From: a virus
IMG/VR virus record: IMGVR_UViG_3300042465_007464
Span: 32,001-96,000 of that record
Strand: one strand, 5' to 3'
DNA: 64,000 nt
Below are positions 5,401 to 37,336 of the stretch, piece by piece. The notes under the pieces are model-generated. The model saw only the letters and a program-made list of their open reading frames with translations, was not told the origin of the DNA and ran no database searches. Position 1 is the stretch's first letter; each line of letters opens with the position of its first letter. A program made the translations under genes and the position numbers.

Positions 5401-7425
5401 TGCCGTTGCAACGAAACTTGCTGATACTACTCGAGATGCAGTTACTACAAAATCTGCATACGTTACAAAACTTGAAGTAATTACGCGCGATGCAGTTTCA
5501 ACAAAACTTGCTGAAATAGATCTGGATACGAAACTTGCAGTTAAAACTAAACTAGCAGTTCTTGCCAAATTTGCCGTTTCTACATAACTTGCTGTAGTTA
5601 TATTGCTTAAAGTTCCTATGTATGATGCCGTACCAAAAAACGAACCGGAAAACGAACCGGAAAACGAACCTGTTCCTGCTAAGTTAGTACCATCGAAAAT
5701 TAATTTATCAACCCCACCGAATGTGTTGTTGTTATTATATTGTATTTGTGTGTTACTTCCACCTGGCGTACCTGCTCCACCACCTCCTCCACCGTTTAAA
5801 GCATATGAGGCTGTAATAGCATATGATGAGCTTATAACGCTGTTAGAACCAAATGGTCCAAATACATTTGATGCTGTTACAAAAGATGATGTTAAAGCGT
5901 TAGTTGTCCAACTTGATGTACCAATTAATGTTCCTGTAAATGAGCCACTAAATGAACCTGTATTACTTAAAAATTGATCTACTCTGTTAGCTGTTAATAT
6001 TACAGATGGGATACCTGGGTGTGTACCTGAGATTGATTCTGCAAGTAATCTTAGATCAGTATCAGCAGATAGCCATATAATTTGGTAATAATCTCCAGCG
6101 GCTGATGTTACAAACCAGTTCCAAGCTGCTACTTGTTTATCATTATTACCACTTAGTGTTAAGGTAGTTGCTGTATCAGTTAAATCAATTCCATTTTTAC
6201 GTAACCATATTACTATTTCATCTGCTCCACTATCTGTTTTATCTATTTGTGCTGAGAATTGTATGTTATATACCCCGGCATTAGTTGTTTTAATATATGT
6301 GTTGAAAGGACTTGTTGATCCTGATATTGATACTCCGTTTGTAATGTCTGTTGAATTAAAAGACATTGAACGAGGTATATTAGCTACTGGGTTTGTTTGG
6401 ATTGTAGTGTCATAAAAACTACCATATGAACCAGTTGCCGTATTAAATCCACCTCCTCCGGTCGAACTAATTGTTACTTGACCTAAACCATTTATTGGTG
6501 ATAGTGTTATATTTGATCCTGCTAATAGTTGAGTTACTCCCCCTCCAGATCCTGTATTCACAGTTATTGGGAATGTATTTCCATCACCTTTTGTAAATGT
6601 AATTGTATTTGAAGATATAGAAGCAGTTACTAATGCATTTGGTGCATATGACGTGGTTAAGGCATTTTCTGCCCAAGATGCAGTACCATATAAACTTCCG
6701 GTTATATTAGGTGCATTTAATGAACCTGTAACTTCTAAACTTCCGCTTACGATTGTTCGACCAATCAACGTTTGCGTATCGTTAACGGCATCGCCGAATT
6801 GATTCGAACCGGAAGAGTATATTACAGATGCAGTTTCGTACGTTACGGTTAAATATGAAATTGATGCAGTTCCATTTAGAGTTAAATTACCATTAATAAT
6901 TTGATTTCCATTAAATGTATTTGAACCAGTCGTTGCTAAACTTGACGACTGCGCCGTAAATATTGGATCTGTTTCTTGATAATATGATGCCGTTGCTGCA
7001 TGCGATGCGGATATGGAAAAACTAGAACTTATAGCATTTAAGACATATGATGCTGTTTGTGCATAAGATGAAGTTGTAGAACGCGAAGCTGATGTTGCAA
7101 ATGAAGCCGATGTTGCATTTAAAACATATGATGATGTAACGGAATTCGTTGCCCAACTCGATGTACCAAATACGCTACCCGTAAATGAACCTGTAAATGA
7201 ACCTGTTGCTCGTAATGTAGTTCCGTCATATGTTAATTTATCAACTCCACTAAACGTATTGTTGTTATTGTATTGTATCTGCGTATTGCTTCCACCCGGT
7301 GTAGTAGTTCCACCACCACCGCCTCCGCCATTCATAGCATACGATGCTGTTACGGCATAACTTGCCGAAATATTATATAAAGATCCTGTTTGTAATTGTC
7401 CTGGTTTGAACTGTCTTGCCATTAT
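2491..7425 (-). CDS. Long tail-fibre/virion appendage protein with TAS[FY] and SGS repeats
   Basis: About 1640 aa. Poly-Gly-TPGGS..IQYN modules x3, TASF/TASY repeats, and IG..AG (YadA-head-like) repeats. Likely start is MARQFK at 7422-7425. Confidence 0.75.
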   Translation of the reverse strand: MMARQFKPGQLQTGSLYNISASYAVTASYAMNGGGGGGGTTTPGGSNTQIQYNNNNTFSGVDKLTYDGTTLRATGSFTGSFTGSVFGTSSWATNSVTSSYVLNATSASFATSASRSTTSSYAQTASYVLNAISSSFSISASHAATASYYQETDPIFTAQSSSLATTGSNTFNGNQIINGNLTLNGTASISYLTVTYETASVIYSSGSNQFGDAVNDTQTLIGRTIVSGSLEVTGSLNAPNITGSLYGTASWAENALTTSYAPNALVTASISSNTITFTKGDGNTFPITVNTGSGGGVTQLLAGSNITLSPINGLGQVTISSTGGGGFNTATGSYGSFYDTTIQTNPVANIPRSMSFNSTDITNGVSISGSTSPFNTYIKTTNAGVYNIQFSAQIDKTDSGADEIVIWLRKNGIDLTDTATTLTLSGNNDKQVAAWNWFVTSAAGDYYQIIWLSADTDLRLLAESISGTHPGIPSVILTANRVDQFLSNTGSFSGSFTGTLIGTSSWTTNALTSSFVTASNVFGPFGSNSVISSSYAITASYALNGGGGGGAGTPGGSNTQIQYNNNNTFGGVDKLIFDGTNLAGTGSFSGSFSGSFFGTASYIGTLSNITTASYVETANLARTASLVLTASFVSRSISASFVETASRVITSSFVTYADFVVTASRVVSASFVATASRVVTASFVESASFVATASYVNFLSENNTVATASRVISASFVATASRVISASFVETASRVITSSFVTYADFVVTASRVVSASFVDTASRIISASFVETASYVQYAATASFVENARLASTGSSLFSFIPGYYELSVSSNVSTESIVAIGQNAGVSAKFAAKSIFIGQDAGGGATSGSDSIYIGNSSGYTSVNSDQSVNIGYAAGGFVKTSSLSVSIGYEAGYNGNLDPNSDTTNGTFIGYNAGYNAINLRGSTFIGNAAGQNAKLANNSTFIGSSAGYGQPSASLSTFIGPNAGRNADILSSGFLLGQGNIIIGNNITLPSGSTRSMNIGSVIFARNLYLGISGNTLLETISGSVNALVGINQPDPTYGLDVSGSGNYTNGLTVTGSLLASSITGSLSGTASFATTASYVSNAISSSYALTASYAMNGGGSGAGFPYVGDAVITGSLLVSGSGITGSLFGTASFADIAQTAITTLTASYLNTLNQNLTFNGNLTLNGTASFTYLNTTYETASVIYSSGSNQFGDAVNDTQTLIGTVIVSGSQNVTGSLNAPNITGSLYGTASWANNALVAATASAVTIGKNTDADATYYVLFATASTLDSVTTLEYMDSGSDALSYNPKFNTLTVATVVGNLTGTATSASYVLNAVSASRAVTSSFALTASFITASNVFGPSGTSSVLTASFAISSSRAVTSSFATSASFASTASFITASRVVGTVTSASYALTASYALNGGGGGGTPGGSTNNIQYNDAGVFRGDSNFNTNGSGSVIITGSLTTSGSVIITGSLIVTGALDTTNRQLIDSTAVASFEWEAPSLNYSIKTPYFFRKTIALTTQESFTINKPNWDGEVIEVASVNGSVAQFNLVALENDGTWYAVDQTTQLATRMLGIYLDSNLVLLEGNILQDDNGTNGPIISNVDHGLVVYIKNGTTSGEMDTNIPGGNYIRRLGHCYYQSTESGAIWIFKFRPSNDWT
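5151..5514. repeat. Intragenic direct repeats (about 100 bp x2, plus a 36-bp tandem x2)
   Basis: 5153-5253 matches 5414-5514. caacaaaacttgctgatattactcgcgatgcggttg occurs at 5238-5273 and 5274-5309. These encode TASRVISASFV units. Confidence 0.9.
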
Positions 7426-8633
7426 TATGCCCACCTTCCATTAATAATTATCGTATCGGTGGAATCTATGGTGTAACCTAATGTTGAAGTATCAAACACG
7501 ATGCTTTGTGTCGTTGTGGTTGGAGTCCATGTGTAAACTGCTTTATCTATGTATTGTCCGTTAATGTATACGTTGAATTCGTTTTTAGTTGCAGCTGCTC
7601 CAGTAACTGGATTTGTTGCTGCAGCTGTGGAAACAGTAACAGTTGTTGATGTTGACCACGTTGCAATTTGATCCGACAATTCGGTTAAATATGATAAAGT
7701 TGCCGCATCTAATGTTCCTGTCGTTGCGCCAGTAACCCGTATCGTCTGTGCAGTACTTGCAATTCGCAATATTGGTGCAGGTACCGTGGTCGTGCTAAAT
7801 AAGTCTACATCTACATCTACAACTGAATCAAATGTTAATTTTTTAACTGAATACATTTTTTTAAGAGTTGATATGCGACTTTCTTGTGCGGATAATAAAG
7901 TACCTTGCACCGTTAATGGTACTGTAGCACGAACCAAACGATCTTCTCCAACCGTGTTTACGGTTTCAAATGAAAATTGTCCTATCGCCGTTGGAAATTT
8001 ATTTCCTTCATTACCCCAAGAAAAACGTCCATATGGTAATATTTGATCTACTAATGCGTTCATTTGTGTGGAAAAATCACACCATAACATCATTTCATAT
8101 TCAACAGTTACATATTTAGGAATATCAATTACGTATATTTTTTCCGATGATTGTGGTTGATTTGTTGGTATTGGAAACAATTCATCTTCATATTGATTGC
8201 GTTTGTTGTAACGTGCTTTATGTGTAAGATAGTTTCCCGTTTGTGGACGATTAACATCCAACGTACGTTGCGTATCTCGTTCCATTACACTGCCTCGTTT
8301 CAACATGATAACGGGAGATTGCAACATTCCTTTTTCATCTCGCAAATAACCTAAACGTCGTACGTTATCCCATTTTTCTCCGTTTGCAAAAATAACAGGT
8401 ACTGGTATGATTTCTTTGTTTGATTCGATTTGCGGACGTATTTCATTGTCTACGTACCATTTAATAGCATAATCAATATCATAAACCGTACGTTGTTTGG
8501 TACGAATCACATCGTCATCTCGTCGAGTTTGCATCGATCGATTCAACAATTGATCTGGAGTCAATCCTTCCGTTGTAGTAGGATTGGGTTTGTTAGTTTT
8601 ACGATCGATATTTTCTCTATTAAACTTTGGCAT
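7425..8633 (-). CDS. Tail completion/sheath stabiliser (gp15-like) with C-terminal extension
   Basis: VPVIFA..EKW and P.YV..EYE...W motifs; follows the neck genes. Confidence 0.6.
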   Translation of the reverse strand: MPKFNRENIDRKTNKPNPTTTEGLTPDQLLNRSMQTRRDDDVIRTKQRTVYDIDYAIKWYVDNEIRPQIESNKEIIPVPVIFANGEKWDNVRRLGYLRDEKGMLQSPVIMLKRGSVMERDTQRTLDVNRPQTGNYLTHKARYNKRNQYEDELFPIPTNQPQSSEKIYVIDIPKYVTVEYEMMLWCDFSTQMNALVDQILPYGRFSWGNEGNKFPTAIGQFSFETVNTVGEDRLVRATVPLTVQGTLLSAQESRISTLKKMYSVKKLTFDSVVDVDVDLFSTTTVPAPILRIASTAQTIRVTGATTGTLDAATLSYLTELSDQIATWSTSTTVTVSTAAATNPVTGAAATKNEFNVYINGQYIDKAVYTWTPTTTTQSIVFDTSTLGYTIDSTDTIIINGRWA

Positions 8634-9154
8634 TAATGTCCTTTATATGCAGGCGAATTATTATTACCACCGCGTCGAATATTTGTTATACCTTGTGGAG
8701 TTTGTCGTGTTGCATGTGCGTCACATACTACAGAAACACTGTAACCATGTTGCGAACCATTTGGCCACGTTTCTGGATTTTTTCCAGCAAAGTATTGATT
8801 CGCATCAACATTGTCTAATTCGTAGTATTCATTATCCCAAAATACAATGTCCCCAACTTCTGGAAAGAAATCTGCAGTTTCTAATGTATCGCGTGACAAC
8901 GCAAATTGTGCTGTACGCGTATATGAATGACCGTAATCATCCATTGTTGCAGTTTTAGTTTCTTTGGTAATCAAACAAGGTATTATGATTGAATCATAAT
9001 ATGATTTAGTTTCGGATTCTCCGTAAATGTTTGAGTTACTAGATTCTACAATTAATTTAAAAAATTCAATTTCAGTATCTACAACCGCATTCATCAATTC
9101 CGAATTGATTGCGGCTAAAAAGCGTGCATCTCTAATCCCTCCAAAAAGTGCCAT
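8633..9154 (-). CDS. Neck/head-closure protein (gp14-like)
   Basis: NIYGES and FPEVGDIV.W...YYE motifs; synteny. Confidence 0.65.
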   Translation of the reverse strand: MALFGGIRDARFLAAINSELMNAVVDTEIEFFKLIVESSNSNIYGESETKSYYDSIIIPCLITKETKTATMDDYGHSYTRTAQFALSRDTLETADFFPEVGDIVFWDNEYYELDNVDANQYFAGKNPETWPNGSQHGYSVSVVCDAHATRQTPQGITNIRRGGNNNSPAYKGH

Positions 9155-9166
9155 ATCTGTTCTCCT

Positions 9167-10390
9167 TTATCCAACATAAATTTTTAATGGAACCTTTGCA
9201 AGAATTTCATTCATCTGAGTTGCTTCTGCATTTTGTCTCGTTAACATTTGTTCTTTTGTGAGTTTATCTAAAAATTCACGAAGTTGTGCAATTAAAGTTT
9301 CTTTTTCACTTTGTCCTTGCGATACTAATTCTGAACCGTTAAGTGTTACTTCTGCTCCTGGTATAGGAACTGATGAATATTTGTTGCGGACAAAGCCTAA
9401 CATTTCTTTTGCAATTGCCGCGCCATATTTAATAATCCACGCACGCCCCATATCATTAATTGTACTGTATGTTTGATACGTGTATGGTATATTTGATGCG
9501 TCACTAACAACATTGTTTACAAGTGCCGTATTACCAAATAACAAGGCATCATTATTTTTTTCATCTTCTAATATGTATTCAACCCAAACTTGTCCGTAGA
9601 ATATACTAGATGCAGAAGAACCTGTACCTGCAGTTGGTATTGGCCAAAATTTAATATCATCACCGTGCAATTCAAATGTGTAATGTGACTTACGTATTTG
9701 ATCGTTAAATTCAATTGCTTGTAGTCTAAACAAATCTGCATGTATTGGCATCATCATGAAACTAATTGATGGCGAAAATCCACCAAAGTTAAATGAATCT
9801 AACAATTGTTGCGAACCTAAACCAGTACCAACAAATGGATCAAAATAACGAACGATTGCTGGAGGTGGATTATGAAGTACTCGTTTAACTTCAATTGCAC
9901 TCCCTGATACGTTTACTCCTGATGCAGATACTGCAGTTTTCAAACTATATGTTTGTTGACCCGGTACCATATCGATTTTGACTTTACGCCATGCAACAGT
10001 ACCACCCGAATCAGCTTCAGTACCATATGCCTTTGAAAGGCGCGTAATATATCCGAATGAATTTCCAACTACATGATCCGTAAAACTAGAACCAGATAAT
10101 GCACCCGTATTAGTTTTTATTCCTAACGTATTCATCAAGTTGTTAACAATATTAACTTGATTAATTTGATTGGAATATTCCATTACCGCAGCTTCAAATG
10201 CTGTATAGAAATTTATAGCCTGGAGTTCAACATCCATTATAGGATAACCTACATGTTGTGCAGCATATTTTGCAAATGAATCTGCATGACGTTGAAACAA
10301 TGGATCACTATCAAAATGACCAAACGGCGTAGATCCTGTTGTAAATGAAGAAGAACCTGACCAAATCGGCTTGTTTTGTGAATAATCCAT
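9167..10390 (-). CDS. Neck/head-tail adaptor protein (gp13-like)
   Basis: GYPIMDVEL at the N-terminus and WI.KY..A..KE.LG.VR.KY..VPIPG..VTLNG at the C-terminus. Confidence 0.75.
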   Translation of the reverse strand: MDYSQNKPIWSGSSSFTTGSTPFGHFDSDPLFQRHADSFAKYAAQHVGYPIMDVELQAINFYTAFEAAVMEYSNQINQVNIVNNLMNTLGIKTNTGALSGSSFTDHVVGNSFGYITRLSKAYGTEADSGGTVAWRKVKIDMVPGQQTYSLKTAVSASGVNVSGSAIEVKRVLHNPPPAIVRYFDPFVGTGLGSQQLLDSFNFGGFSPSISFMMMPIHADLFRLQAIEFNDQIRKSHYTFELHGDDIKFWPIPTAGTGSSASSIFYGQVWVEYILEDEKNNDALLFGNTALVNNVVSDASNIPYTYQTYSTINDMGRAWIIKYGAAIAKEMLGFVRNKYSSVPIPGAEVTLNGSELVSQGQSEKETLIAQLREFLDKLTKEQMLTRQNAEATQMNEILAKVPLKIYVG

Positions 10391-10418
10391 ACGTGTTTCC
10401 TTTTATATATAAATATCG

Positions 10419-11479: not shown

Positions 11480-13174
11480 TTAAAGAACGTTAAGACCGTG
11501 TACGTATACTTTTCCGTAGAATTCTGAACGAACAACTTTCTTCGCGTAACGTGTCATAACACCTTTACGTGGAGTGAAGTTAACTGGATCATATACTAAT
11601 GGTGTCATAATCAATGGAATGTATGGACTAAATACAGCACCCGTTTCTAGGAACTGTGCTCCACGGAATCCCATTAAGATTACGTTTTCTAACATGTATG
11701 GGTTTTTGTATACTGTGTAACGGTTATTGATTGAACCAATTTTTTGTACACCTGCCGCAAATTCCATTTTAGTTCCATCTGTGTCAGCAGCAAATCCTGG
11801 GATAGACTCAAGAATAGTTGCAACTGCTGGAGAAGTTACTAGGAAGTTAGCACCACCACGCAATGTTTTTTGGTGGATTTTGTTTGATACTTTTTGTAAT
11901 TTAGTGCCAAGTGTTTGGAACCAACCACCTTGAGTGTTGTAGTATCCATCACCTGAAGTACTAACACCACCACCTGCAGTAGCTTGAGTAAATCCTGAAC
12001 CATTCCAGAAGTTATTGTTCAATGCTGACCAATATTCAACTGTTGGTGCTGCAGCAATCAACATATCTAAGATTTCCAAATCAATTTCCATGGAAACATA
12101 CTCAGAAAGCATTGAAGTTAATTCAGCTTCAGCATCAATTGAATGGTAAGCATTTAAGTCTTGTGCGAACTCTGGAGTCCATACTGCTTTCAACTTACGT
12201 GTTTTAGCAACGATTGGTTCAGATTGCATTTCCAAGTTAATTTCTGGAATGTCAATATCAACACCGGTATTGATACCCGAATTCGCAGATGACCCTCGGA
12301 ATGGGTTAGCATCTTCAAAATCACCACGAGTGATATCAGTTGGTTGTTTGCTATAATTCAATTTGAAGTTTGTTCCTGCACTAATTGCCGTTTGAATAGC
12401 CGTTGCTTGTGCCGTTGTTACAATGAATGATGCAGTGTAATTGCTTGTAATTGTTGAGAATGCCTGAACTGGAATGATTTCGTCACCTGCAGAACCTGAA
12501 GCAAATGTCCAAGAACGAACTGCATATAAATCAGCATCAGTTGGTACATTGATAGTTACTTTTTTATAGCTTGATAATGATGCTGAATATACGCTATCAT
12601 AATTAACAAGGCCAGCATCTGTCAATGTACCAGCACCAGAACCTGTGTTAGCAGATGTGGATGTTAATGCTGCGGATGATGTGTTGTTGATTGAATAACC
12701 GAAACGACCTGCACCGTAAAGACCACCTGCTGCATCTGAACCAGTTGTAGTAACACCAAACATTGAGTCAGTTGCGTTAGGATTACCAAACGGATCACCA
12801 GTTCTGCTGTTGTTATCTGCATCAAATCCTGGTTGAGCCGTACCGTATTTAAAGTCTAAGTAAAAAATTAGACCCGATGGCAAATTCATTGGTTGAACTG
12901 ATACGAATTCTTTTGCTGCAAATTCAGCAAAGATACGACGTACCAATGGAAGAGCTACACCATTCCATTCTTCAGATCCAGCTGTTGTACCTGTTGAAGT
13001 TGCTTCTTTTACTAATTGACGTGCTTGGTTTTCAAGCAATTGCGCCATACCTGCTTTTTCAGTCTCTGTACGAAGACCTTCTAACAAACCTGTTTTCTCC
13101 CATTTATTAACGATAGCTTTTGCTGCGTTTCTTTGGTTGAAATCGTTTGTACTTAATAAATTTGAAATATCCAT
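11480..13174 (-). CDS. Major capsid protein (T4 gp23-like)
   Basis: LPLVRR, VSVQPM..PSGLIFY, AKTRKLKA.WT.E.AQDL.A.H..DAEAEL, Y.PYIPL and F.P..G.MTRYA motifs. Confidence 0.96.
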   Translation of the reverse strand: MDISNLLSTNDFNQRNAAKAIVNKWEKTGLLEGLRTETEKAGMAQLLENQARQLVKEATSTGTTAGSEEWNGVALPLVRRIFAEFAAKEFVSVQPMNLPSGLIFYLDFKYGTAQPGFDADNNSRTGDPFGNPNATDSMFGVTTTGSDAAGGLYGAGRFGYSINNTSSAALTSTSANTGSGAGTLTDAGLVNYDSVYSASLSSYKKVTINVPTDADLYAVRSWTFASGSAGDEIIPVQAFSTITSNYTASFIVTTAQATAIQTAISAGTNFKLNYSKQPTDITRGDFEDANPFRGSSANSGINTGVDIDIPEINLEMQSEPIVAKTRKLKAVWTPEFAQDLNAYHSIDAEAELTSMLSEYVSMEIDLEILDMLIAAAPTVEYWSALNNNFWNGSGFTQATAGGGVSTSGDGYYNTQGGWFQTLGTKLQKVSNKIHQKTLRGGANFLVTSPAVATILESIPGFAADTDGTKMEFAAGVQKIGSINNRYTVYKNPYMLENVILMGFRGAQFLETGAVFSPYIPLIMTPLVYDPVNFTPRKGVMTRYAKKVVRSEFYGKVYVHGLNVL

Positions 13175-13196
13175 TTCTTTTTTCCTTTTTTAATTG

Positions 13197-14204
13197 TTAT
13201 AGCAATCCTGCTAATTTTTTCCAACGATTAGCTAATTCAAATCCTTCTGACAATACTTGAGTAGTTTCTTTCTTAGGAGCCGTTGATGCAGCTGGTTTAG
13301 ATGCATATGATTCTTTAACTACGCGTTTTTTAGTTGGACGGTTGAATGATTCAGCCAATGTACTAAATACTAATTTTACTTCTCTTGTGTTACCAGCACG
13401 ATCAAATCCTTCAATCACTTTCATTTTTTGACCTTCTGATAAATCAAAATTGCGGAACAATTTGTTTGTGTAAAGAAGTTTTGCGTTTAGAAGATTTACT
13501 TCGTTGATGATGCTTTTCAATTCTCGAACTGTTTTGTAAGCTTCTTCAAGTTGCTCGTTTGCCATCTTAAGTTCGTCACCATGAGTTCCTTCATGACCAG
13601 CATCTTGCATTTCTTCTAATTCTTCTTCCTCTTCTTCTTCACGTAGAATTGATTCAATGATTTCGTCGATGTTGAAGTCTTCAGCTAATTCGTCATCCTT
13701 AGGCATATCATAACCTTCAGTTGCCATGTCTTCTTCCATGTCTTCTTCTTCATTAAGATCGCCTTCTAATTCACGAATAATCGCTTCAAGATTCAAATCT
13801 TCATTGTACTCGTCAGCCATTTCTTCATCTGATACAGGTGCTTCTTCTTCACCTTCCATTCCAGCTTCAGCTCCTGGCTCTTCTTGAGAAAATATGTCGA
13901 ATTCATCAAATTCTCCGTCATTGTTAACGTCAATTGATAAATCACCAACATCTTCTCCAGCACCCATGTCGCCTTCCATTCCTGCATCCATACCTGCTTC
14001 AGCACCCATGTCCATGTCATCCATAGCTGGTTCTTCTGCTGGCATTTCTTCGTCTTCTACTTCATTTGTTAACTGAGTTGCTAACATTCTTTCAAGACGA
14101 GGAGCGAAAGCTTCTTGTAGTGCAATTTTTGCGTTTGCTAATGCTGTTTCTTTAACGGCACGTGCATCGGCGATTGCTTCTTTTAGCAAATCTGATTTTG
14201 CCAT
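13197..14204 (-). CDS. Prohead scaffolding/core protein (gp22-like)
   Basis: Very acidic coiled coil lying between protease and capsid genes, with many L/I-x-E sites; SD AAGGAG. Confidence 0.75.
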   Translation of the reverse strand: MAKSDLLKEAIADARAVKETALANAKIALQEAFAPRLERMLATQLTNEVEDEEMPAEEPAMDDMDMGAEAGMDAGMEGDMGAGEDVGDLSIDVNNDGEFDEFDIFSQEEPGAEAGMEGEEEAPVSDEEMADEYNEDLNLEAIIRELEGDLNEEEDMEEDMATEGYDMPKDDELAEDFNIDEIIESILREEEEEEELEEMQDAGHEGTHGDELKMANEQLEEAYKTVRELKSIINEVNLLNAKLLYTNKLFRNFDLSEGQKMKVIEGFDRAGNTREVKLVFSTLAESFNRPTKKRVVKESYASKPAASTAPKKETTQVLSEGFELANRWKKLAGLL

Positions 14205-14343
14205 AAGTTTTCTCCTTAAATTTGTTTTTTGGAAATAAGATTATTTGAAATCTTAATAGAATATTTTTATTTTATAGTGACGCTATAATAAGAGTGGAAA
14301 TAGCGTATTCTACAATAAATATAAGCACGTTTAGAAAAACAGT

Positions 14344-14376
14344 AAAAAAGTCCTAACTTTTTTTAGCTAGGACTTA
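14344..14376 (-). terminator. Terminator after bS21 gene
   Basis: aagtccta...taggactt inverted repeat with a U tract on the minus strand. Confidence 0.65.
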
Positions 14377-14394
14377 AAATCGGTGTAAGTTGTT

Positions 14395-14640
14395 TTATTT
14401 TGAGTGTTGATCTCGAACCATTTGCATGAATGCAGCTTTAATATTTTGCTGTCTGCGTTGCACACTAGGCTTAATGAATTCTCTGCGATCTTTTGTCGCT
14501 TCAAGCACTCCGGCAGATTTTACTTTGCGTTTCCATGCTTTAAGTGCATGTGCTAAATCTTCTCGTTCTGTTCCTACAACTTGTACTGCTAATGCATTAC
14601 CCGGAACAATTTGTTGATGTTGTTTTTGTTTTTTATTCAT
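14395..14640 (-). CDS. rpsU: Phage-encoded 30S ribosomal protein bS21
   Basis: V.V...EDL..ALK.WKRKV..AGVL...KDRREFIKPSV.RR...IKAAF; the C-terminus resembles Bacteroidota bS21. Confidence 0.88.
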   Translation of the reverse strand: MNKKQKQHQQIVPGNALAVQVVGTEREDLAHALKAWKRKVKSAGVLEATKDRREFIKPSVQRRQQNIKAAFMQMVRDQHSK

Positions 14641-14658
14641 ATAACTTGTTTAATAGTA

Positions 14659-15162
14659 TCAAATAGCTTCTGGTGCCGGTGCTTCTGGTTGTGGACGTTG
14701 TCCTCTTACATTGAAACGAAAATGTTTAATTTCTGGCACTTGTGCAACGTATCCTTGAATCTTTTGTGATTCGCGTCCTGGATCTTCTCCTAAACGAAAA
14801 TAGAAATATCCTACTTTACCTGATTTAGATATGTTTTGTTTAACTATAGTAAATCCTTTTCGTTCTGACCAATCTCGTATATCATTTGCAACGTTTTGTG
14901 CCATTGACGGATCTCGCAATACATATTCAACTCCTCCGCGATAATCTGCAATATGATTAACAAGTTGTGCTTCGTCTATTTCAGATTCATTAGCTGTTAT
15001 TCTAACATTACCACCGGCTTTCTTTGCAGCCACTTGTGCTGCAGTTAATGCATTTTTATCTTTTGCAACAGATGCCGCTATTTCAATATCGTTTGGATTT
15101 TGTTTAGTAGTTTGTTCTGTTATTCCGAAAAATTCTTTATATAATTTTTTTAGTGCATTCAT
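14659..15162 (-). CDS. Hypothetical protein (possible head protein)
   Basis: Likely start is MNALKKLYKEFFGITEQ; SD AAAGG. Confidence 0.6.
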   Translation of the reverse strand: MNALKKLYKEFFGITEQTTKQNPNDIEIAASVAKDKNALTAAQVAAKKAGGNVRITANESEIDEAQLVNHIADYRGGVEYVLRDPSMAQNVANDIRDWSERKGFTIVKQNISKSGKVGYFYFRLGEDPGRESQKIQGYVAQVPEIKHFRFNVRGQRPQPEAPAPEAI

Positions 15163-15204
15163 TTTATTACCTTTAATATAAATAAAAAGATTCAAACATC
15201 CAAA

Positions 15205-15576
15205 TTAATTAACATCGAAGTATTTGTTTAATCCTTGTGCGATATCTTCATATGCTGCACTTAAACGTTGTTGCAACATAGCCATTTCTTTTGCAGTTGC
15301 TTCAAATACTTTGTATGAATCGTTTAGATTTTTCATGTGACGTTTAACTGTTACACTATCAAACCAATCGCCTTTTTCCGTTGCAATTTGTTCTGCTTTG
15401 TTAATGATGTCACGTACATGATCGGTTAATTGATCTAAATCACCTTTTCCATATACCGAATCACTCATTTCAGAAAAACGTTTAACGCGTTCAACGAATG
15501 CAGCTTTTTCTTCTTTAGACAATGGTTTTGGTTGTTCGTCTAACAACGTTTCTAGTATGTATTTTAAATTTCTCAT
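15205..15576 (-). CDS. Hypothetical head-module protein
   Basis: Likely start is MRNLKYILETLLDE; helical. Confidence 0.6.
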   Translation of the reverse strand: MRNLKYILETLLDEQPKPLSKEEKAAFVERVKRFSEMSDSVYGKGDLDQLTDHVRDIINKAEQIATEKGDWFDSVTVKRHMKNLNDSYKVFEATAKEMAMLQQRLSAAYEDIAQGLNKYFDVN

Positions 15577-15578
15577 CT

Positions 15579-16211
15579 TTAAATTATTCTGCATTTACCG
15601 TCTTCGCATAAAATTGAAGTAATAAGTTCATTTACACGTGCGTATTTGTTTGTTTTAACTGTTTTATCTACTGACTCGTGCATGTGCGTAGGCCGCATAA
15701 AAGCCCCATGCGTTGAAGGATTTGATACAAAGTCCCAACATATCAATTCAAAGTCTTCTTGAACTTCAACCGTACCCTCACTGCGTAATTCTTTTACGGA
15801 ACCTAATCCACGGGATGAAATGCCTAATGTGATACCAGCTTTAAAAAGTTCTTTAAGAATTTTTCCTGACGGAGTTTCTAGTATTTGTACTGCTCCTTTT
15901 AAATCATCACCATCCCACCATATTTTTAGTACATTATGAGATACGTTGTTCAAGTTTACTACGGAAGATTCTGGATGATCCAATTCTCCTAGTGCACGAT
16001 GCTGTTGTATGAATTCTTGTTCATATCGTCTACATTCGCGTTCTAGTATGTTTCTTGGATAGATTCTACCATTTTGATTTTTTGCTCCCGCACGTTGTAA
16101 AACTCCTTGAACTACAAAACCACCAGGTATCCCATATGCAGCCCCACTCGATTCAGTAAGTGAACCAATCGGACGAAATGGCATATATTCTACTATTAGT
16201 TGTTTTGACAT
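15579..16211 (-). CDS. Prohead protease (T4 gp21-like)
   Basis: KNQNGRIYP, ALGELDHP, VSH, GISSRGLGS and DFVSNPS motifs. Confidence 0.95.
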   Translation of the reverse strand: MSKQLIVEYMPFRPIGSLTESSGAAYGIPGGFVVQGVLQRAGAKNQNGRIYPRNILERECRRYEQEFIQQHRALGELDHPESSVVNLNNVSHNVLKIWWDGDDLKGAVQILETPSGKILKELFKAGITLGISSRGLGSVKELRSEGTVEVQEDFELICWDFVSNPSTHGAFMRPTHMHESVDKTVKTNKYARVNELITSILCEDGKCRII

Positions 16212-16212
16212 A

Positions 16213-16950
16213 TTATTCTCCTAATGCTCTTACGCGTTCCGATATTTTGACTAATCGTTCTGATATTGTTGATAATGCTTTTTTAGTTCGTGCTCCATAT
16301 GAAGATGCAGCTACACCAGATTCTGTTTTTAATCTTGCGTTATGTTTTACTAGTTCATCAATTTCTTGAAGTTTTTTAGCAATTTCTTGAATGGTGCGAT
16401 TCACTTTTTTATCCGGCGATACGTCTTTATCTGCCGTTGCAAATGACCGATAACCTTCAATCAATTCCTCATATTTACGTTCCATAACATCTTCTACTTT
16501 CAAAGCAGATATTTGTTTGCGAACTCCATGTTGTGGTAAATTTCCTATGCGAGTTGTGTTGTCTTCAATATTGTTCGTACCTTCACCATCCGGATAATAT
16601 TTTACCGGAAACTCTTGATCCGATTGCCACCAATATGATGCATCTGGCGAAAAGGGAAACTTATCATTGAAAATTTCTTCATCTGACTCAGGCGCTTGAT
16701 GTCCCGTTGTTTTCCAATCAAATGTCGGTTTAACATTTATAGATTCGTAACGTGCTTCTTTACCTCGCCATTTTCCTGGTTTAGCAAATGCAGCCGGCGT
16801 ATTGAATCCAGCAATGGCACCCGTTACATTTTGTTCGTCAATTTCTTCTTCATCGCAAACACACTTATCCATAGGACGATCACATGCATCGCAATATGAA
16901 TCTTCTATTTCATGGAATCGTTCTTTCATTTCACGTAATATTGACTTCAT
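16213..16950 (-). CDS. Hypothetical head-module protein
   Basis: 245 aa; CDAC...CVC motif near the N-terminus; F.TP.AF motif; C-terminal coiled coil. Confidence 0.65.
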   Translation of the reverse strand: MKSILREMKERFHEIEDSYCDACDRPMDKCVCDEEEIDEQNVTGAIAGFNTPAAFAKPGKWRGKEARYESINVKPTFDWKTTGHQAPESDEEIFNDKFPFSPDASYWWQSDQEFPVKYYPDGEGTNNIEDNTTRIGNLPQHGVRKQISALKVEDVMERKYEELIEGYRSFATADKDVSPDKKVNRTIQEIAKKLQEIDELVKHNARLKTESGVAASSYGARTKKALSTISERLVKISERVRALGE

Positions 16951-17840: not shown

Positions 17841-19682
17841 TTACAAAATATTGTTTTCATCTAAAATAGTACCAGCGTCTTTATCAGATTCCGTTGGTAT
17901 TGCTGTTTTTAAAGATTCTGTTATTATGGATGCACCTTTATTTTTTATTTTTAAATGTTTCAATATGTTGTTATGTTCTACGGCAACTGTTGCGTTGTTT
18001 TTAAACTTCGGATCTGGCTGAAATGCTGTTTTTTGATTTTCTGGATTAAATGTTTGCTTAATAGTTTTAATACCCGTTGGATCCCATCCAAATTCATTTT
18101 GATGTTGTCCTGATTTAATTCCTTCTGGTGGACGGCCTCCTAAATCTTTTTCTTCAACGTCATCGCTGGACATGTGCATTGATGCTAAATCATGAGGTGT
18201 TCCAAATGAAACTCCCGTTATAGCAGGATCATTTCCTTCTTGTTCAATCTGATTTTGACGGAAACGAAGTTTAAGATCTTCAATAACATCAACACGTTCT
18301 TGAAGCCATTGTTCTTCGGACATATTGAATATAAACTCATAAATGTAACGATCTGAAACAAGTTTTAAATCTTTCATTGTATTTGCTAATTGAACTTTTT
18401 CATTCATTAAAGCAACTTTTTGTTGATCGTATATAATTGATGGTGCTGTTAATTCTAGTTCAAATCCAATTAAATCTTCGCCTTCAAATCCTTGTGAATA
18501 TAAATGCACTATTCCAATTTTAATAAGTTCCGATGTTACGATTTTTTGAATACGTTCGATAGTTCTGGCAAAACGAATATCCATGGATGCTAACGTAGTT
18601 TTACCTTCAACTGACTCGCTATATCCTAAAAATGGTTTAGGAATTTTAAGTGCAGCCATCATTTTATCTTTTACATATTCAATATCATCCATTCCGGTAA
18701 ATGTCATACCTGGTAATGTATCAATTGTAGTAGAAGACTGACCCCCGCGTACTGGCAAATAATAATCTTCTAACATGTTGTTAAGATTGAATCTCATGTT
18801 GTAATTTCCAGTTTGCGGATCGATGTGTGGAATTTTTTTCATTTTATTGATAATCTGTTCCATGAAATTATCAACTTCATTTGGTGGAATATTACCAATA
18901 TCAATTTTAAAGATTCGTTTTTCTGGTGCACGCATTATACGATGAATAAGCATTGCATCTTCTAACATCATTAATTTTTGAAATTCTTTACGTGCTCCTT
19001 CTAACATAGATCTACCGTACGGTAAAAAGTTTGAATCCGACAACATACGGAAATGTGCTATTTCAAACACATCATATGTCATTTGTTCTGACGCAATATT
19101 TTTAAATTTAATATCATATTCACCCGTCGCTTCATTATATTCTTCCCAACGTTCCATTTCATAACTAGAAAATGGACGTGCATTAACTACTCCGTAAGTG
19201 TCTGCGATATCTAATTTCAAAAAGAAATCACCGTATTTGGTCATGTTGCGTATCCACGTCCACAAATTGAATTCAATGTTCAATACATCATAAAACAAGT
19301 TATAAAGTATTTTTTGAATTTGCGTGTTATTAGTTTTGATTGTAAGTATATCTCCGAATTGATCTGCTAATGTAGATTCATCTGAATAAATATCTAAGGC
19401 AGAAGATATGATTGGATCTTTATCCATCATTTCGTAGTCAGCATATAACTGCATACGATTTTGGTGCATATAATAATTAGAATCATATCCACCCATACCA
19501 CCGACACGGTGTTTGTTTGCACCATGCAGTCGAGTATATCGATCTGCAATTTTACTTTGTGCTAAATTACCAGAACCTTGTAGACGATTTGTATCTACTA
19601 CACGTACCTGATCTTTCCCATATGCCCGAACAATTACGTTGGTGCTAAATAGGTTCTGTAAACGTTTTCTTAATGACGCCAT
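17841..19682 (-). CDS. Portal protein (T4 gp20-like)
   Basis: LEDAMLIHRIMRAPEKRIFKIDIGN, EDYYLP.RGG...T.IDTLPG, ALKIP. Confidence 0.95.
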   Translation of the reverse strand: MASLRKRLQNLFSTNVIVRAYGKDQVRVVDTNRLQGSGNLAQSKIADRYTRLHGANKHRVGGMGGYDSNYYMHQNRMQLYADYEMMDKDPIISSALDIYSDESTLADQFGDILTIKTNNTQIQKILYNLFYDVLNIEFNLWTWIRNMTKYGDFFLKLDIADTYGVVNARPFSSYEMERWEEYNEATGEYDIKFKNIASEQMTYDVFEIAHFRMLSDSNFLPYGRSMLEGARKEFQKLMMLEDAMLIHRIMRAPEKRIFKIDIGNIPPNEVDNFMEQIINKMKKIPHIDPQTGNYNMRFNLNNMLEDYYLPVRGGQSSTTIDTLPGMTFTGMDDIEYVKDKMMAALKIPKPFLGYSESVEGKTTLASMDIRFARTIERIQKIVTSELIKIGIVHLYSQGFEGEDLIGFELELTAPSIIYDQQKVALMNEKVQLANTMKDLKLVSDRYIYEFIFNMSEEQWLQERVDVIEDLKLRFRQNQIEQEGNDPAITGVSFGTPHDLASMHMSSDDVEEKDLGGRPPEGIKSGQHQNEFGWDPTGIKTIKQTFNPENQKTAFQPDPKFKNNATVAVEHNNILKHLKIKNKGASIITESLKTAIPTESDKDAGTILDENNIL

Positions 19683-19724
19683 ATTTCTTTTTTAATATAA
19701 ATATAACTATGTTAAGATCAGTGG

Positions 19725-21305
19725 TTATTTTATCAACCAAGTTAATGATTCATCGCCTGACCCAGGATTCCAATTCCATCCATTGTCGCTGTTATTACGA
19801 TTGCCAGTATAAATAACTGGACTCGTTTTTTGAAAAGAAGATAGTGCACGTTTATTCAAATCAATACCTTGTTGACGTAATTTTAGTGCAGTATCGCGTA
19901 ACCATAATCCGATACAAAATGACATTACTAAGTCATCGTTATATCCTTGTTGTGCTTGTGCTTTACCATTAAGCCAAACAAACACTAGTAATTCTTGTAT
20001 TAAACGTCGGCTACGAATAAACGGAGTACGATCTCGCATATACATTTCAAGTGCCGATATCATTAATGGACGTGTACGTGTTGTGGTTGATACTCCCGGA
20101 ACCATTTGGCTCTTATCTTTCATATCATAACCTTTTTTCAATTGTACATCGGCATCTGTATATCCGTCATCTTTATATGTATAATGTAAGTTTTGATAGT
20201 TTCTATCAAGTGCCGGCTGAATTGCGGCCCAACCAATGTTTGCATTTTCAATAGCTAATAACGCATTGTTCCATTCCGTTGCAACCGTTACTAACATGTT
20301 TCCAAATTCATTGGGTGGAATCTTTCCTTTAAATTCTGCTACTTGTCGTACCGTTTCAACTTCTAAAACATGAAATGCAGACCAGTCACCACCATCACCC
20401 CGTGCGACGTCAGCTACTACCATGTAATCACGTGCATAGTCCGGATATTCCCAAATCCAATACGCTCCATCAAATCCACGCTTTTCAATTGGTTCTTCAC
20501 ATTTACCTTCATATTCTAAAAGCAAAGGACCATCTACTACAGTATGTCCCGATGATACGAAGTCACAGTCACATTCTTGTGCCGCACCGCGTTCGCCTAA
20601 TAACGATGTTTGTTCATTACGCCACGTTTGGTCGCGTTCTGGGTGCACATCCCAACGCAAACGAATTGTATGGAAACCGTTAATGTCCGCTTCCGCGTCT
20701 GCCCAAGTTTGGTGAAACCAGTTACCAACACCGTTCGGCGTAGATAATACAATAGCACCACCACCCGTTGATAGGGTTGCTTGCGACGCTATCCATATTT
20801 CTTCAATGTTTCGAATAAATGCAGCCTCATCAATGATTAGCAGAGACAACGCTTCTGAACGTGCTCCTGTGGTTGCTGATGAAACGGCTTTGATTTGCGA
20901 ACCATTTTTAAATTTAAGTGATAATTTGTTATCAGCTTCAACCGTACCTTTCAACCAACTTGGCAAGTTATCGTGCATCACCCGTACTTTCGTTACTAGG
21001 TTTTTTGCTACTTCTTGTGTGGTTGCAATAACTAACACGTTGAAATCTTCTTTGAACAACATGCACCAAAGTGCAAAGCCGGCAGATAGAGTTGATATAC
21101 CTAACTGCCGAGACTTTAATATTACATTGTATCGATTATCGCGAAGCTGTGTTAATGAATCTTCTTGGAATGGAAACAAATTAAATTTGATCTTACCACG
21201 TTTAGGATGTTGTATGTAACAATAATTACGCATAAAAAATACAGGATCTTTAGCACATTGCATGTACTGTTGTTGTATTATCTGCTTAATATTTTGTTGT
21301 GCCAT
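19725..21305 (-). CDS. Terminase large subunit (gp17-like)
   Basis: KSRQLGIST Walker A, IIDEAAF Walker B, STPNG, DVARGDG.D, DDLVM. Confidence 0.96.
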   Translation of the reverse strand: MAQQNIKQIIQQQYMQCAKDPVFFMRNYCYIQHPKRGKIKFNLFPFQEDSLTQLRDNRYNVILKSRQLGISTLSAGFALWCMLFKEDFNVLVIATTQEVAKNLVTKVRVMHDNLPSWLKGTVEADNKLSLKFKNGSQIKAVSSATTGARSEALSLLIIDEAAFIRNIEEIWIASQATLSTGGGAIVLSTPNGVGNWFHQTWADAEADINGFHTIRLRWDVHPERDQTWRNEQTSLLGERGAAQECDCDFVSSGHTVVDGPLLLEYEGKCEEPIEKRGFDGAYWIWEYPDYARDYMVVADVARGDGGDWSAFHVLEVETVRQVAEFKGKIPPNEFGNMLVTVATEWNNALLAIENANIGWAAIQPALDRNYQNLHYTYKDDGYTDADVQLKKGYDMKDKSQMVPGVSTTTRTRPLMISALEMYMRDRTPFIRSRRLIQELLVFVWLNGKAQAQQGYNDDLVMSFCIGLWLRDTALKLRQQGIDLNKRALSSFQKTSPVIYTGNRNNSDNGWNWNPGSGDESLTWLIK

Positions 21306-21684: not shown

Positions 21685-22041
21685 TTATTTTTTAGTTTTA
21701 GTATTTTTGTTATTTGGTTTACGACCTTTTTTAGTTTTGTTCAAAATATTTGCTTTCGCATCTACAACATCACGAACTTCAACTACTAAATTGTCTTTTG
21801 CTTCTTTAAGATCTTGTACTGCAGTTACTGCATCCGTAATTTGATCGTTAATTGCTTCTCGTTTTTGTTCCATAACTTCAACAGCTTCTTCAATTTTATC
21901 AATTGTGTCGTTGTTGTTTTTGATTTTATCGTTTAATTCTGATTGTTTTTTACTTTTGTTAGAATTAACTAGGTATAAAACTCCAGCAATTGCCGCAAAT
22001 ATACCTACTACTGCTGCTACGATTTTCTTAATTATTTTCAT
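21685..22041 (-). CDS. Membrane-anchored coiled-coil protein (possible inner spanin)
   Basis: N-terminal TM helix followed by coiled coil and basic tail. Confidence 0.45.
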   Translation of the reverse strand: MKIIKKIVAAVVGIFAAIAGVLYLVNSNKSKKQSELNDKIKNNNDTIDKIEEAVEVMEQKREAINDQITDAVTAVQDLKEAKDNLVVEVRDVVDAKANILNKTKKGRKPNNKNTKTKK

Positions 22042-22675
22042 CTGTTTCCTTGTCTAAATTGTTTAAAAAATCTTGTTTAAATTTATCAAATTGTTTTTGT
22101 ATTGTTTCATCAAATTCTTCAGCAGTCATTCGAGCCGTCCATGCTTCTTGTTGACCTTCTGAATTAGTTACGAAATTTGATGCTTCGGTATATACTTGTT
22201 TTAACATTGCTACATCGCGTTCTGCAGCTGCTAACCAAGCAAGTTTATTTTCACGAATCTTAGATTGTTCGTATTCTTCAAATTTACCTTCTTTTTTCAA
22301 TTCATGTTCCATTTCAATTGTGCAATCAAAACACATTCCATGAATCTTACGCATTTTTTGGTCCAACTGATGCGTTCCAATGCAAGTGCATGTTTCTTTG
22401 CGACAATTTGGAAATGCGCGAATTTCTTCTCGTATAGATTGAAGTGCGTCGCTGGCTTTGGTTTTCTTAACTCGAAATCCATCACGTTGTTCATAAATGT
22501 AAGTGATGCCGGTACTAGAATCCGTCTCTTCCCATGTGTCACCTACTTCATGCCGTTCGTTGCGTTTTGCAACTTGTTCTGCATCAGAGAACCCAACTGT
22601 TTTTTTAGTTTGGAACTTGTGTGTGCCATCCAACATTTGTTGAATCGCTTTGGTGTTTTGTAACTTTTTTGACAT
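22028..22675 (-). CDS. Hypothetical protein with Cys motifs
   Basis: 215 aa; GD.WEE, CTC and CFDC motifs. Confidence 0.7.
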   Translation of the reverse strand: MSKKLQNTKAIQQMLDGTHKFQTKKTVGFSDAEQVAKRNERHEVGDTWEETDSSTGITYIYEQRDGFRVKKTKASDALQSIREEIRAFPNCRKETCTCIGTHQLDQKMRKIHGMCFDCTIEMEHELKKEGKFEEYEQSKIRENKLAWLAAAERDVAMLKQVYTEASNFVTNSEGQQEAWTARMTAEEFDETIQKQFDKFKQDFLNNLDKETDENN

Positions 22676-23494: not shown

Positions 23495-24076
23495 TTAAAC
23501 AGATTTAACCGATTTTTTATTTAATAACGCTTTTGAAATATTTTCAGAATGTTTTGCAGTTCGCGGTGGTTTCTTTTTATTTTTAAGTGACTTACTAATA
23601 TTAAGTTTATGTTCATCACTCATTGGCCCACGACTTAAACCAGATTTACCTTTATTCCATGGAATGCGCCCCTTTCCAGCTTTAGAAATTTTTTCTCGAG
23701 TTTCTATAGAATATTTAACGGTTTTTCCTTTATTTTGTTTACCTAATTGTTGTACAATCATTTGTTGCAGTTGTTTACAACGACTATATTCTTTCGAACT
23801 AATGATATAATTTCGTTCATGTTTTGAACTTTGATGATTCATCATTCTCCATAGTGCATAATGCAATTTTGTTTCGTTAAGATAAATTTCACAAAGAAGT
23901 TTATGTGCTATGAAATGTTCTCGAGCTGTAAGTAATACTAAATTAGTTTTATTATTTCGTCCATTTAAACATTTAGGAACGATATGATGTCGTTCGAAAT
24001 ATATGCCGCGACCTTTTTTACGATTCTCAGATTGACATCGCGCTATTAATTGTTCGTATATTTTTTTATAATTCAT
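23495..24076 (-). mobile_element. Free-standing HNH homing endonuclease with NUMOD3 DNA-binding repeats
   Basis: ERHHIVPKCLNG.N...NLVLLTAREHFIAH.LL; S.ETREKIS...KG..PWNKG; SDEHK.NIS. Confidence 0.88.
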
Positions 24077-36775: not shown

Positions 36776-37336
36776 TTATTTTATTTTGTATATAATGTAT
36801 TGTCTGTCTGTTCCTTTGTATGTTGCAATAGCACCAGTTGAATCTAATTCAAATTCATCTGCTTTTACATACACTTCTGGATGTAATGCTAAATGTCTAG
36901 GATTTTCAATTTTCAAATAACTACCATCTTCCGAACGACCTAATACTGCAACTTCCGGATGTCTTCGTGCATTAACGAGATCAAGCATTTTTTTTATTTT
37001 TGCATTATCGTAATCAATTTTAAATATGTCTGGTTGTTTTTTTGTATTTATATCTGAATCTACTTTAACAACAGTTCCTTCAGCTTTATTTCTAGCATCA
37101 ACATATGTTTGTATTACATTGATAGCTTTATCATAATTCTCCGGAGACAATGCTATTTTCATGTTTTTCCAAGATCCTGATCCTTTTTTTCGTGTAAACC
37201 AAGCTCCATTTTTTTGTACGTATTGCCATGGATCATTTCCAGGATTAATTTGAGTTCCATTTGATGCCGGATCTGTAGTTGAAAATGGTTTAGTTGTATC
37301 AAATGCTTCAAATAGCAAATTTTTTAATTTAATCAT
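36776..37336 (-). CDS. Putative internal head protein (MIKLKNLLFE leader)
   Basis: Leader shared with the two upstream genes; SD AAAGGA. Confidence 0.6.
   Translation of the reverse strand: MIKLKNLLFEAFDTTKPFSTTDPASNGTQINPGNDPWQYVQKNGAWFTRKKGSGSWKNMKIALSPENYDKAINVIQTYVDARNKAEGTVVKVDSDINTKKQPDIFKIDYDNAKIKKMLDLVNARRHPEVAVLGRSEDGSYLKIENPRHLALHPEVYVKADEFELDSTGAIATYKGTDRQYIIYKIK

Follow-up and report, generated by a model that had tools for sequence, protein, structure and literature searches.

No ribosomal protein is found in phage genomes more often than bS21, and its gene in the T4-like phage genome considered here raises the question of what such a protein would do for the phage, and for which of its messages. 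The genome (G000) is IMG/VR record IMGVR_UViG_3300042465_007464, a 109.6-kilobase (kb) linear viral record, of which bases 32001-96000 form the window, the whole stretch of 64,000 nucleotides (nt) that was analysed and to which coordinates refer unless another source is named. An earlier reading of the window, made from its letters alone (the sequence-only reading), had placed a bS21 gene inside the head module, had seen Shine-Dalgarno (SD) sites concentrated on late genes, and had proposed that phage bS21 replaces the host copy and frees the anti-SD of 16S rRNA in favour of late phage mRNAs. In the comparative analysis described here, the general idea that phage bS21 may make SDs usable gains real support: bS21 and SD use co-occur almost perfectly in related phages, as an unlocking of the anti-SD by bS21 would predict, but the residue-level argument offered with it fails.

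bS21 and SD use across T4-like phages

Genes were called from the longest open reading frame (ORF) and a codon-usage score, with SDs playing no part, and a gene was counted as SD-bearing when AAGG, AGGA, GGAG or GAGG ended 3-11 nt before its longest-ORF start. Loci for comparison came from a scan of IMG/VR with the capsid proteins of G000, of the cultured Flavobacterium phage vB_FspM_immuto (NC_055915; immuto hereafter) and of locus L140, and a locus was scored if it had 8 or more genes and extended 3.5 kb or more upstream of the capsid gene. In the 112 scored loci that have bS21, SDs precede 998 of 1947 genes (51%; median 0.53), whereas in the 52 loci that lack it they precede 54 of 771 (7%; median 0.07), with a maximum of 0.235 in any locus (Mann-Whitney p = 2e-24 for SD density). 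In relatives with a capsid identity as low as 56%, the bS21 gene is placed some 1.2-1.5 kb upstream of that for the capsid. A capsid tree of 225 sequences, built with FastTree, has six changes of bS21 state, and the six bS21-less lineages (the immuto clade, with 76 rows; the L140 clade, with 4 rows and support 98; the L315/318/320/325 clade; the L343 clade; and two single rows, L282 and L322) are each poor in SDs next to sisters that have bS21 and are SD-rich.

Ranked by capsid protein, the cultured phages nearest to G000 are immuto (56.5%) and Microcystis phage Mel-JY01 (53.8%), with Rhodothermus phage RM378 far lower. Immuto shares with G000 the order of the head module, the late motif TATTTATA and the type of early promoter; it differs in that its whole genome holds no bS21, in that 8 of its 206 genes are SD-bearing (against a background of 10.8%), and in a codon usage rich in AGA and GGA. 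None of its 23 genes behind the late motif and none of its 26 behind a host-type promoter has an SD, and the leaders of its capsid, scaffold and neck genes, behind the same late motif as in G000, are A-rich and free of G. The candidate causes of the flip in codon usage between these sister clades are a different host, a constraint at the level of DNA, or SD avoidance. SD-like 4-mers within coding sequence are depleted relative to synonymous shuffles in phages with bS21 (observed/expected 0.88-0.91) as against 1.04 in immuto, and per kb of coding sequence the bS21-bearing phage G006 has about one sixth as many AGGAG as immuto; the depletion extends to the reverse-complement motifs, and internal SD avoidance is therefore not counted as evidence.

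SD sites and classes of promoter

SDs precede 44 of the 120 starts in G000 (37%), are of AAAGGA type and mostly lie 5-9 nt before the start; the same measure gives 7.1% at other ATGs (186/2614) and 7.3% at random positions (1453/20000), both on the coding strand. A logo built from 158 SD-bearing genes of three genomes is A-rich and then reads A (97%), G, G, A (74%), with a following G (16%) not preferred, and its GG is placed 7-11 nt from the ATG. The complement of AAAGGA is the UCCUUU of the 16S 3' tail ACCUCCUUUCU, a tail deduced from the residue numbering in Jha et al. 2021; with this tail the strongest phage SD pairs at -9.9 kcal/mol, and most pair near -5 to -6. The SD sites named in the sequence-only reading (before the starts at 2128, 9154, 10390, 13174, 14204, 37336, 38068, 42160, 47751, 52918, 56230 and 57390) are all present, 3-9 nt from the start. 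The starts that it listed as SD-less (primase 36100, HD 54709, endonuclease 56129, 57263, 58601, 61046 and bS21 14640) do lack SDs, and its exceptions stand as well: 2451 and 15162 have SDs, and portal (19682) and terminase (21305) do not.

The upstream signals are of three kinds. The motif (A/C)TATTTATA(T/A) occurs, in the orientation of the gene, 21-36 nt ahead of many structural genes and is common to relatives with and without bS21; it is taken as the late promoter by analogy with T4's TATAAATA, of which it is, on the coding strand, the inverse (for example at 10408-10416, 19696-19704 and 52935-52943). A host-type promoter, TTG-N19-21-TAnnTTTA, often in the form TTGACACGCA...TAnnTTTAAGTAT, precedes small genes at the right end of the genome, which share the leader AAAAAGAGAGAU-AUG. 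The early genes with this leader occupy 100.7-108 kb of the genome, to the right of the window, and the AGAGAG of the leader could pair, with one G:U, with UCUUUC, the last six nt of a Flavobacterium-type 16S tail; the pairing is speculative because that tail is deduced from published residue numbers. A third upstream signal is the variant TTCATTATA(T/A)T.

SD use follows these classes in G000. Genes behind the late motif ATATTTATA are SD-bearing in 17 of 24 cases, those behind the host-type promoter in none of 14 (Fisher p = 1.7e-5), and internal genes without a promoter in 27 of 82; 8 of the 14 host-promoter genes are paralogous promoter-leader cassettes, and the effective number is therefore smaller. 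The same trend is found in two complete relatives (late motif 16/32 against host-type 1/5, and 17/32 against 2/12). The concentration of SDs on late genes is thus borne out, as a statistical enrichment tied to start codons and with no SD on host-promoter early genes or on bS21, but "late only" would be too sharp, as about one third of the promoter-less internal genes have an SD, some of them in the DNA-metabolism block.

Orthologues of window genes were also scored in 59 non-redundant relatives of the G000 clade (last column of Table 1), and SD state is a property of the gene across that clade. The two ORFs just upstream of bS21 have mixed states, a sign of frequent gain and loss, and the fixed states of other genes must therefore be maintained by selection. 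High-copy proteins are those with SDs and low-copy ones those without, as expected if an SD raises yield in the infected cell.

The bS21 protein

The 81-residue gene product scores 46.3 bits against Pfam PF01165 (cut-off 27; residues 21-69 covered) and 45.9 bits in a six-frame search. Its closest solved relative is the bS21 of Flavobacterium johnsoniae (PDB 7JIL chain z; E 2e-7), one of eight distinct solved bS21 sequences matched, and the ungapped alignment of the two begins at phage residue 25, opposite host residue 8, and sets Phe71-Met72 opposite Tyr54-Ile55, a conservative change. In the F. johnsoniae ribosome Tyr54 stacks on A1534 and Ile55 is in van der Waals contact with the 16S 3' tail, and a less basic bS21 C-terminus is also given as Bacteroidetes-specific (Jha et al. 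2021, PMC7797042). The phage C-terminus ...KAAFMQMVRDQHSK aligns with ...KAAYIQTLKDS of F. johnsoniae and is less basic, as in Bacteroidia-type bS21; the Mel-JY01 clade has AARKRQRK at the same place. AlphaFold2 (AF2) predicts helices at residues 26-43, 45-52 and 58-80, and a Foldseek search with the model gave no meaningful match, as expected for an extended non-globular chain.

The sequence-only reading had drawn attention to KAAF in the phage protein where the Flavobacterium protein has KAAY, with its key tyrosine. Phage Phe71 does sit opposite Tyr54, but it is not the determinant: at this position of the family Phe and Tyr are interspersed among close relatives, and loci of both kinds are equally SD-rich. 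Among 61 phage bS21 proteins Chen et al. 2022 (PMC9723584) counted 54 with Tyr and 7 with another aromatic residue, and their conclusion was that phage bS21 still stacks on A1534 and thereby keeps the anti-SD blocked. Given this alternation and their reading of the aromatic residue, whose ring Phe retains, the change from Tyr to Phe cannot be the switch and was ruled out.

A better candidate determinant would be the conserved N-terminal extension of 17 residues. At least 240 bS21 homologues were found, 64-93% identical and nearly all of 81 residues, and the extension is the most conserved part of the family, with M1, K4, Q7, H8, Q9 and G14 invariant in 32 sequences; AF2 places a helix at its residues 3-10 with a predicted local distance difference test (pLDDT) score of 80-88. 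A profile search of 1.84 billion cluster representatives gave 217 clusters at E 1e-10 or better, and most of the top 150 cluster representatives have a basic N-extension with an (I/V)PG...V.V motif. The phage protein departs from the host-length form of 64 residues without N-extension by its 17 extra, highly conserved N-terminal residues.

Homologues of bS18 or bS6 were not found in the phage, in which bS21 is the sole ribosomal protein found and therefore the only candidate among ribosomal proteins. Searches with tblastn of the bS21 against the phage collection gave no match at E 1e-3 and, at E up to 10, Mel-JY01 plus weak or unrelated matches only; a fecal contig matched in this way was dropped as a GC-50% sequence with a Firmicutes-type bS21. 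In a related-loci search the bS21 genes of distant clusters again adjoin T4-like capsid genes, and thus offer no unrelated phage family for an extra test.

The host

The host is probably a Bacteroidia-type bacterium, on the indirect evidence of the bS21 signature, the F. johnsoniae protein as best solved match, the immuto-like early promoter and the SD-less early genes. Before its early genes immuto has TTG-N20-TATNTTTAGGTAT in 28 forward-strand copies, with one mismatch allowed; in G000 the same architecture occurs five times, with A in place of G at one position, and the early promoter TTG-N20-TAnnTTTA(A/G)GTAT is common to the two phages. Cellular genome contigs scanned with the bS21 alignment gave no match and the protein-cluster search gave viral clusters only, and the host has therefore to be read from the phage. 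Mel-JY01 (PP395634, locus L161) has its RpsU at 7185-7412, at the syntenic place and with a basic, non-aromatic C-terminus; its genome has a GC content of 34%, SDs on 70 of 216 genes and no copies of the early-promoter motif of the Flavobacterium phage.

A proposed mechanism and its rivals

The best explanation of these patterns, with about an even chance of being right, is a bS21-dependent unlocking of SD reading on SD-blind ribosomes, since, in published work, only a disturbance of the bS21/bS18/bS6 pocket makes Flavobacterium ribosomes heed SDs as weak as these. On wild-type F. johnsoniae ribosomes an SD must pair at below about -13 kcal/mol (13 base pairs), and single mismatches abolish initiation, whereas mutations of bS6 or bS18, or truncation of bS21, free the 16S tail and permit weaker SDs (PMC13000457). 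Ribosomes without bS21 translate the SD-bearing rpsU message at a higher rate, according to the abstracts of PMC9976891 and PMC13000453. Even the strongest phage SD falls short of the threshold of wild-type ribosomes, and a replete host ribosome would be expected to overlook such sites, yet they are kept, gene by gene, across relatives.

The host, probably one of the Flavobacteriia/Bacteroidia, would have ribosomes in which the pocket of bS21, bS18 and bS6 keeps the 16S 3' tail locked and which do not respond to ordinary SDs. Phage bS21, with its host-like core and C-terminus and its conserved, basic 17-residue extension, would be made late in infection from a host-style SD-less leader and would exchange into host 30S subunits, making them responsive to short AAAGGA-type SDs; the simplest route would be that the tail is no longer held in the pocket. 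The SDs placed 5-9 nt before the start on genes of bulk products (capsid, scaffold, protease, neck, tail) could then be read, and early genes, low-copy late genes (portal, terminase) and bS21 itself would keep SD-less leaders. The outcome would be a translation boost for SD-bearing, mainly late phage messages over SD-less host messages. From the patterns described above we infer the incorporation into ribosomes, the release of the anti-SD, the role of the N-extension and the identity of the host. That a large T4-like family with N-extended bS21 converts SD-blind Bacteroidia ribosomes to SD-reading ones, as a private channel for bulk late proteins, and that lineages losing bS21 rewrote their leaders to the SD-less host style, is a tentative generalization with slightly less than an even chance.

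Chen et al. 2022 (PMC9723584) and McNutt et al. 2023 (PMC9976891) speculate on a redirection of translation, and neither names the feature of the favoured message. The present pattern supplies such a feature in short SDs found on late genes, never on bS21, and lost wherever bS21 is lost. If the mechanism is true, it would be the first function assigned to the commonest phage-encoded ribosomal protein, and a case of a virus switching the message-selection rule of the host ribosome, that is, a natural case of ribosome re-specialization; it would also explain the retention of the anti-SD in SD-blind bacteria as a feature open to exploitation. It connects to a system for which assays exist, with F. 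johnsoniae ribosomes, toeprint and dipeptide assays and cryo-EM of the platform pocket. SD density, in turn, is a possible cheap marker for annotating Bacteroidia phages and for calling their starts.

Several observations weigh against an unlocking of SD reading by bS21, some of them told below with the rival that they favour. The bS21 gene is transcribed with the very late genes that it is supposed to help. Well-supported branches underlie only three of the six phylogenetic contrasts, and several contrasts involve long branches, which leaves the phylogenetically corrected evidence suggestive and not conclusive. The sole exception to the co-occurrence, locus L287, has bS21 and yet is SD-poor (1/16). 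Its bS21 (5913-6128 in L287) has 71 residues, lacks the (I/V)PG extension and occupies another place in the head module, with 3.8 kb between it and the capsid gene; this bS21 may be host-like and have been acquired independently, and it hints, as a single case, that the N-extension matters. The AAAGGA motif has no preference for a GGAGG core, and duplex energy, taken as the SD measure, gives only a modest contrast (22% against 13% for pairing at or beyond -6 kcal/mol), the informative measure being that of motif and position.

One rival, which is unlikely, takes phage bS21 to be host-like in function: it would keep or restore sequestration of the anti-SD, or top up the bS21 supply (Chen et al. 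2022), AAAGGA would act in some other way (through bS21-less ribosomes, bS1 or another phage factor), and the two traits would be linked by descent. An aromatic residue, Phe or Tyr, is retained at the contact with the pocket, and the conserved C-terminal helix resembles that of the host, a state that Chen et al. 2022 read as keeping the anti-SD blocked; the missing GGAGG core agrees with this rival, as do ribosomes without bS21, known to read SDs (PMC9976891). It leaves unexplained the lack of SDs in every bS21-less lineage, and why the most conserved part of the protein is an extension without host counterpart.

It is likewise improbable that the co-occurrence is an effect of the host, with clades that have bS21 infecting natively SD-reading bacteria, clades that lack it infecting SD-blind Bacteroidia, and bS21 doing something else, such as a general boost or defence evasion. 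The cultured relative Mel-JY01, with its syntenic bS21 and its many SDs, is recorded on the cyanobacterium Microcystis, and 56% capsid identity does not fix the host phylum; the early promoters of G000 (TTGACA-N17-TATnTT) would suit a standard sigma-70 too; and Arg AGA (79%) and Gly GGA (61%) in immuto compare with 20-24% and 36-41% in phages that have bS21 (G000, G006, G007), which could mean a different host. Yet a natively SD-reading host would not demand the SD-less early genes (0/14) found in the same genome. The bS21 of the G000 clade, moreover, has the Bacteroidetes signature (an aromatic residue at 54 and a non-basic C-terminus) that the Mel-JY01 clade lacks, a cultured Flavobacterium phage has the same extended early-promoter motif, and six parallel host switches would be needed, each coinciding with loss of bS21.

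Very unlikely is the idea, raised by Chen et al. 2022 (PMC9723584), that bS21 is packaged in the capsid and injected to act at the start of the next infection. The place of the gene in the head module, between the prohead protease/core genes and the scaffold gene, would then reflect packaging, and the conserved N-extension could be a targeting tag; but the early genes are precisely those without SDs, and the stretch from extension to core is variable, with no T4-type (L/I)xE cleavage motif seen there on reading the alignment. Finally, AAGGA as a by-product of the late promoter or transcript start can hardly be credited and was rejected: many SDs do lie 5-16 nt after ATATTTATA, but among the 158 SD-bearing genes the position is fixed to the ATG (standard deviation 2.0 for GG to ATG, 5.0 for promoter to GG), 106 of the 158 have no late motif within 60 nt, several SDs lie within upstream coding sequence, and bS21-less relatives have the late motif yet no AAGGA.

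Relation to known systems

The unlocking of SD reading proposed here is best filed as a concrete, testable mechanism added to the known theme of phage bS21; a full-text literature search gave no paper tying phage bS21 to SD use by phage genes. The freshwater Bacteroidetes myophages of Chen et al. 2022 (ISME Commun 2:31, PMC9723584) likewise have bS21 among the genes for terminase, portal, prohead protease and capsid; the residue at Tyr54 is aromatic there too, a Bacteroidetes host is predicted, and the late expression reported for that bS21 agrees with the late position of the gene here. They differ in that their bS21 lies on the strand opposite the structural genes, whereas here it is on the same (minus) strand and last in the late operon, and in genomes of up to 331 kb as against 158-169 kb for complete relatives of G000; SD use was no part of that study, in which the anti-SD was concluded to be blocked.

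A second precedent is bS21 autoregulation in F. johnsoniae (McNutt 2023, PMC9976891; Arpin 2026, PMC13000457; Naeem 2026, PMC13000453), in which the bS21 state of the ribosome decides the reading of SD-bearing messages through the same pocket and 16S tail. The host SD described there is on rpsU only, is very strong (13 base pairs, below -13 kcal/mol) and is read by ribosomes without bS21; the phage has dozens of weak SDs (5-8 nt), and its bS21 gene is never SD-bearing. McNutt et al. 2023 speculate on exchange of phage bS21 on the ribosome and draw no link to phage SDs. They also state that the bS21 of Pelagibacter phage HTVC008M (Mizuno et al. 2019, PMC6375957), which is again encoded by a T4-like myophage, can enter Escherichia coli ribosomes; that protein has no tblastn similarity to the bS21 of G000 at E up to 10, the phage is absent from the 25 best capsid matches listed, and Mizuno et al. 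2019 make no mention of SDs. In Francisella, bS21 paralogues provide a case in which an alternative bS21 changes which messages the ribosome favours, in a cellular and not a viral system, according to the abstract of Trautmann et al. 2022 (PMC9578407).

The genome and the surroundings of bS21

G000 has a GC content of 35.6%, is 65% complete by CheckV and has about 120 genes, all except two on the minus strand. T4-like myophage markers were identified with Pfam and PHROG: a gp23-type capsid, gp20-type portal, gp21-type prohead protease, large terminase and baseplate wedge. DNA near-identical to G000 was seen in lake-water metagenomes only, and megablast of the head-module DNA against the phage collection gave no match. 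The 64-kb window holds no tRNAs. A homing-endonuclease ORF lies between late genes at 23495-24076 (PHROG 655, E 1e-41).

The bS21 gene is indeed inside the head module, within a few genes of the large terminase subunit, portal, protease and major capsid protein. It is the last gene of the late head operon, lies between the prohead protease and the scaffold-like and gp23 capsid genes, and is co-oriented with the protease upstream and with scaffold and capsid downstream. No Rfam family was found in 13900-15300. Coordinates are collected in Table 1.

Table 1. Features of the window, their strand and translation signals, and the fraction of scored orthologues that have an SD
Feature	Position	Strand	SD or other signal	Basis or remark	Orthologues with SD
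Phage bS21 gene, 81 residues	14395-14640	minus	no SD	PF01165 (Ribosomal_S21) and PHROG S21	0/58
N-terminal extension MNKKQKQHQQIVPGNAL, codons 1-17 of bS21	14590-14640	minus		no counterpart in aligned F. johnsoniae protein	
Phe71 codon, equivalent to F. johnsoniae Tyr54	14428-14430	minus		7JIL_z alignment	
bS21 start region	14641-14658	minus	tgatactattaaacaagttat-ATG, no SD	18 nt separating upstream ORF from bS21	
Terminator-like hairpin and U-run	14344-14376	minus		directly 3' of bS21; sequence and fold	
Late-promoter motif	14315-14322	minus	ATATTTAT	118 nt upstream of scaffold gene	
Scaffold-like gene	13197-14204	minus	SD TAAGGAG, 14212-14218	SD 7 nt before ATG	55/59
gp23 major capsid gene	11480-13174	minus	SD AAAAAGGA, 13183-13190	Pfam Gp23, E 7.7e-75	47/51
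ORF of unknown function	14659-15195 (or 15162 with second start)	minus		same operon, upstream of bS21	37/58
ORF of unknown function	15205-15594	minus		same operon, upstream of bS21	29/55
Late-like motif	15176-15184		TTATTTATA	within the ORF pair upstream of bS21	
Prohead protease gene	15579-16211	minus	SD TAGGAG, 16218-16223	Pfam Peptidase_S77; SD within upstream coding sequence	40/54
Portal gene	17841-19682	minus	no SD	PHROG match; late gene	0/37
Large terminase gene	19725-21305	minus	no SD	PHROG match; late gene	2/31
Gene	22028-22675				0/28
Late gene	7425-8633	minus	SD 8639-8645	SD inside upstream coding sequence	34/38
Late gene	8633-9154	minus	SD 9162-9169	SD almost wholly in upstream coding sequence	40/40
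Late gene	9167-10390	minus	SD 10398-10405		42/42
Tail/baseplate block	36776-52933	minus	SDs 37341-37348, 38076-38083, 38639-38645, 42168-42172, 47758-47764, 49649-49652, 50110-50114, 51481-51486, 52497-52503, 52927-52933		
Baseplate wedge gene	47762-49642	minus		PHROG	
Host-type-promoter genes	53924-54709, 56922-57263, 58068-58601, 60837-61046	minus	no SD	TTG-N19-21-TAnnTTTN	
SD of a plus-strand gene	56218-56223	plus	TAAGGA	one of only two plus-strand genes; behind ATATTTATA	
SD of a plus-strand gene	57380-57386	plus	TAAAGGA	the other plus-strand gene; behind ATATTTATA	

The leader of the scaffold gene after its late motif is 118 nt long (14205-14322). Folding of the 211-nt stretch 14190-14400, which includes the bS21 terminator, gives z = -3.8, and the minimum-energy structure has hairpins within the scaffold leader. 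The leader context of bS21 is conserved and G-poor, with T at -3 in 86%, A at -2 in 86% and T at -1 in 82%, and the start consensus of the bS21 family is AAATTTAA-N4-6-GTTAT-ATG. A second start context, TAAGTT(AT)ATG, is common to several, mostly SD-less genes (starts at 36772, 22675, 55076, 51474 and bS21 at 14640), and contexts of this type may be a distinct initiation signal.

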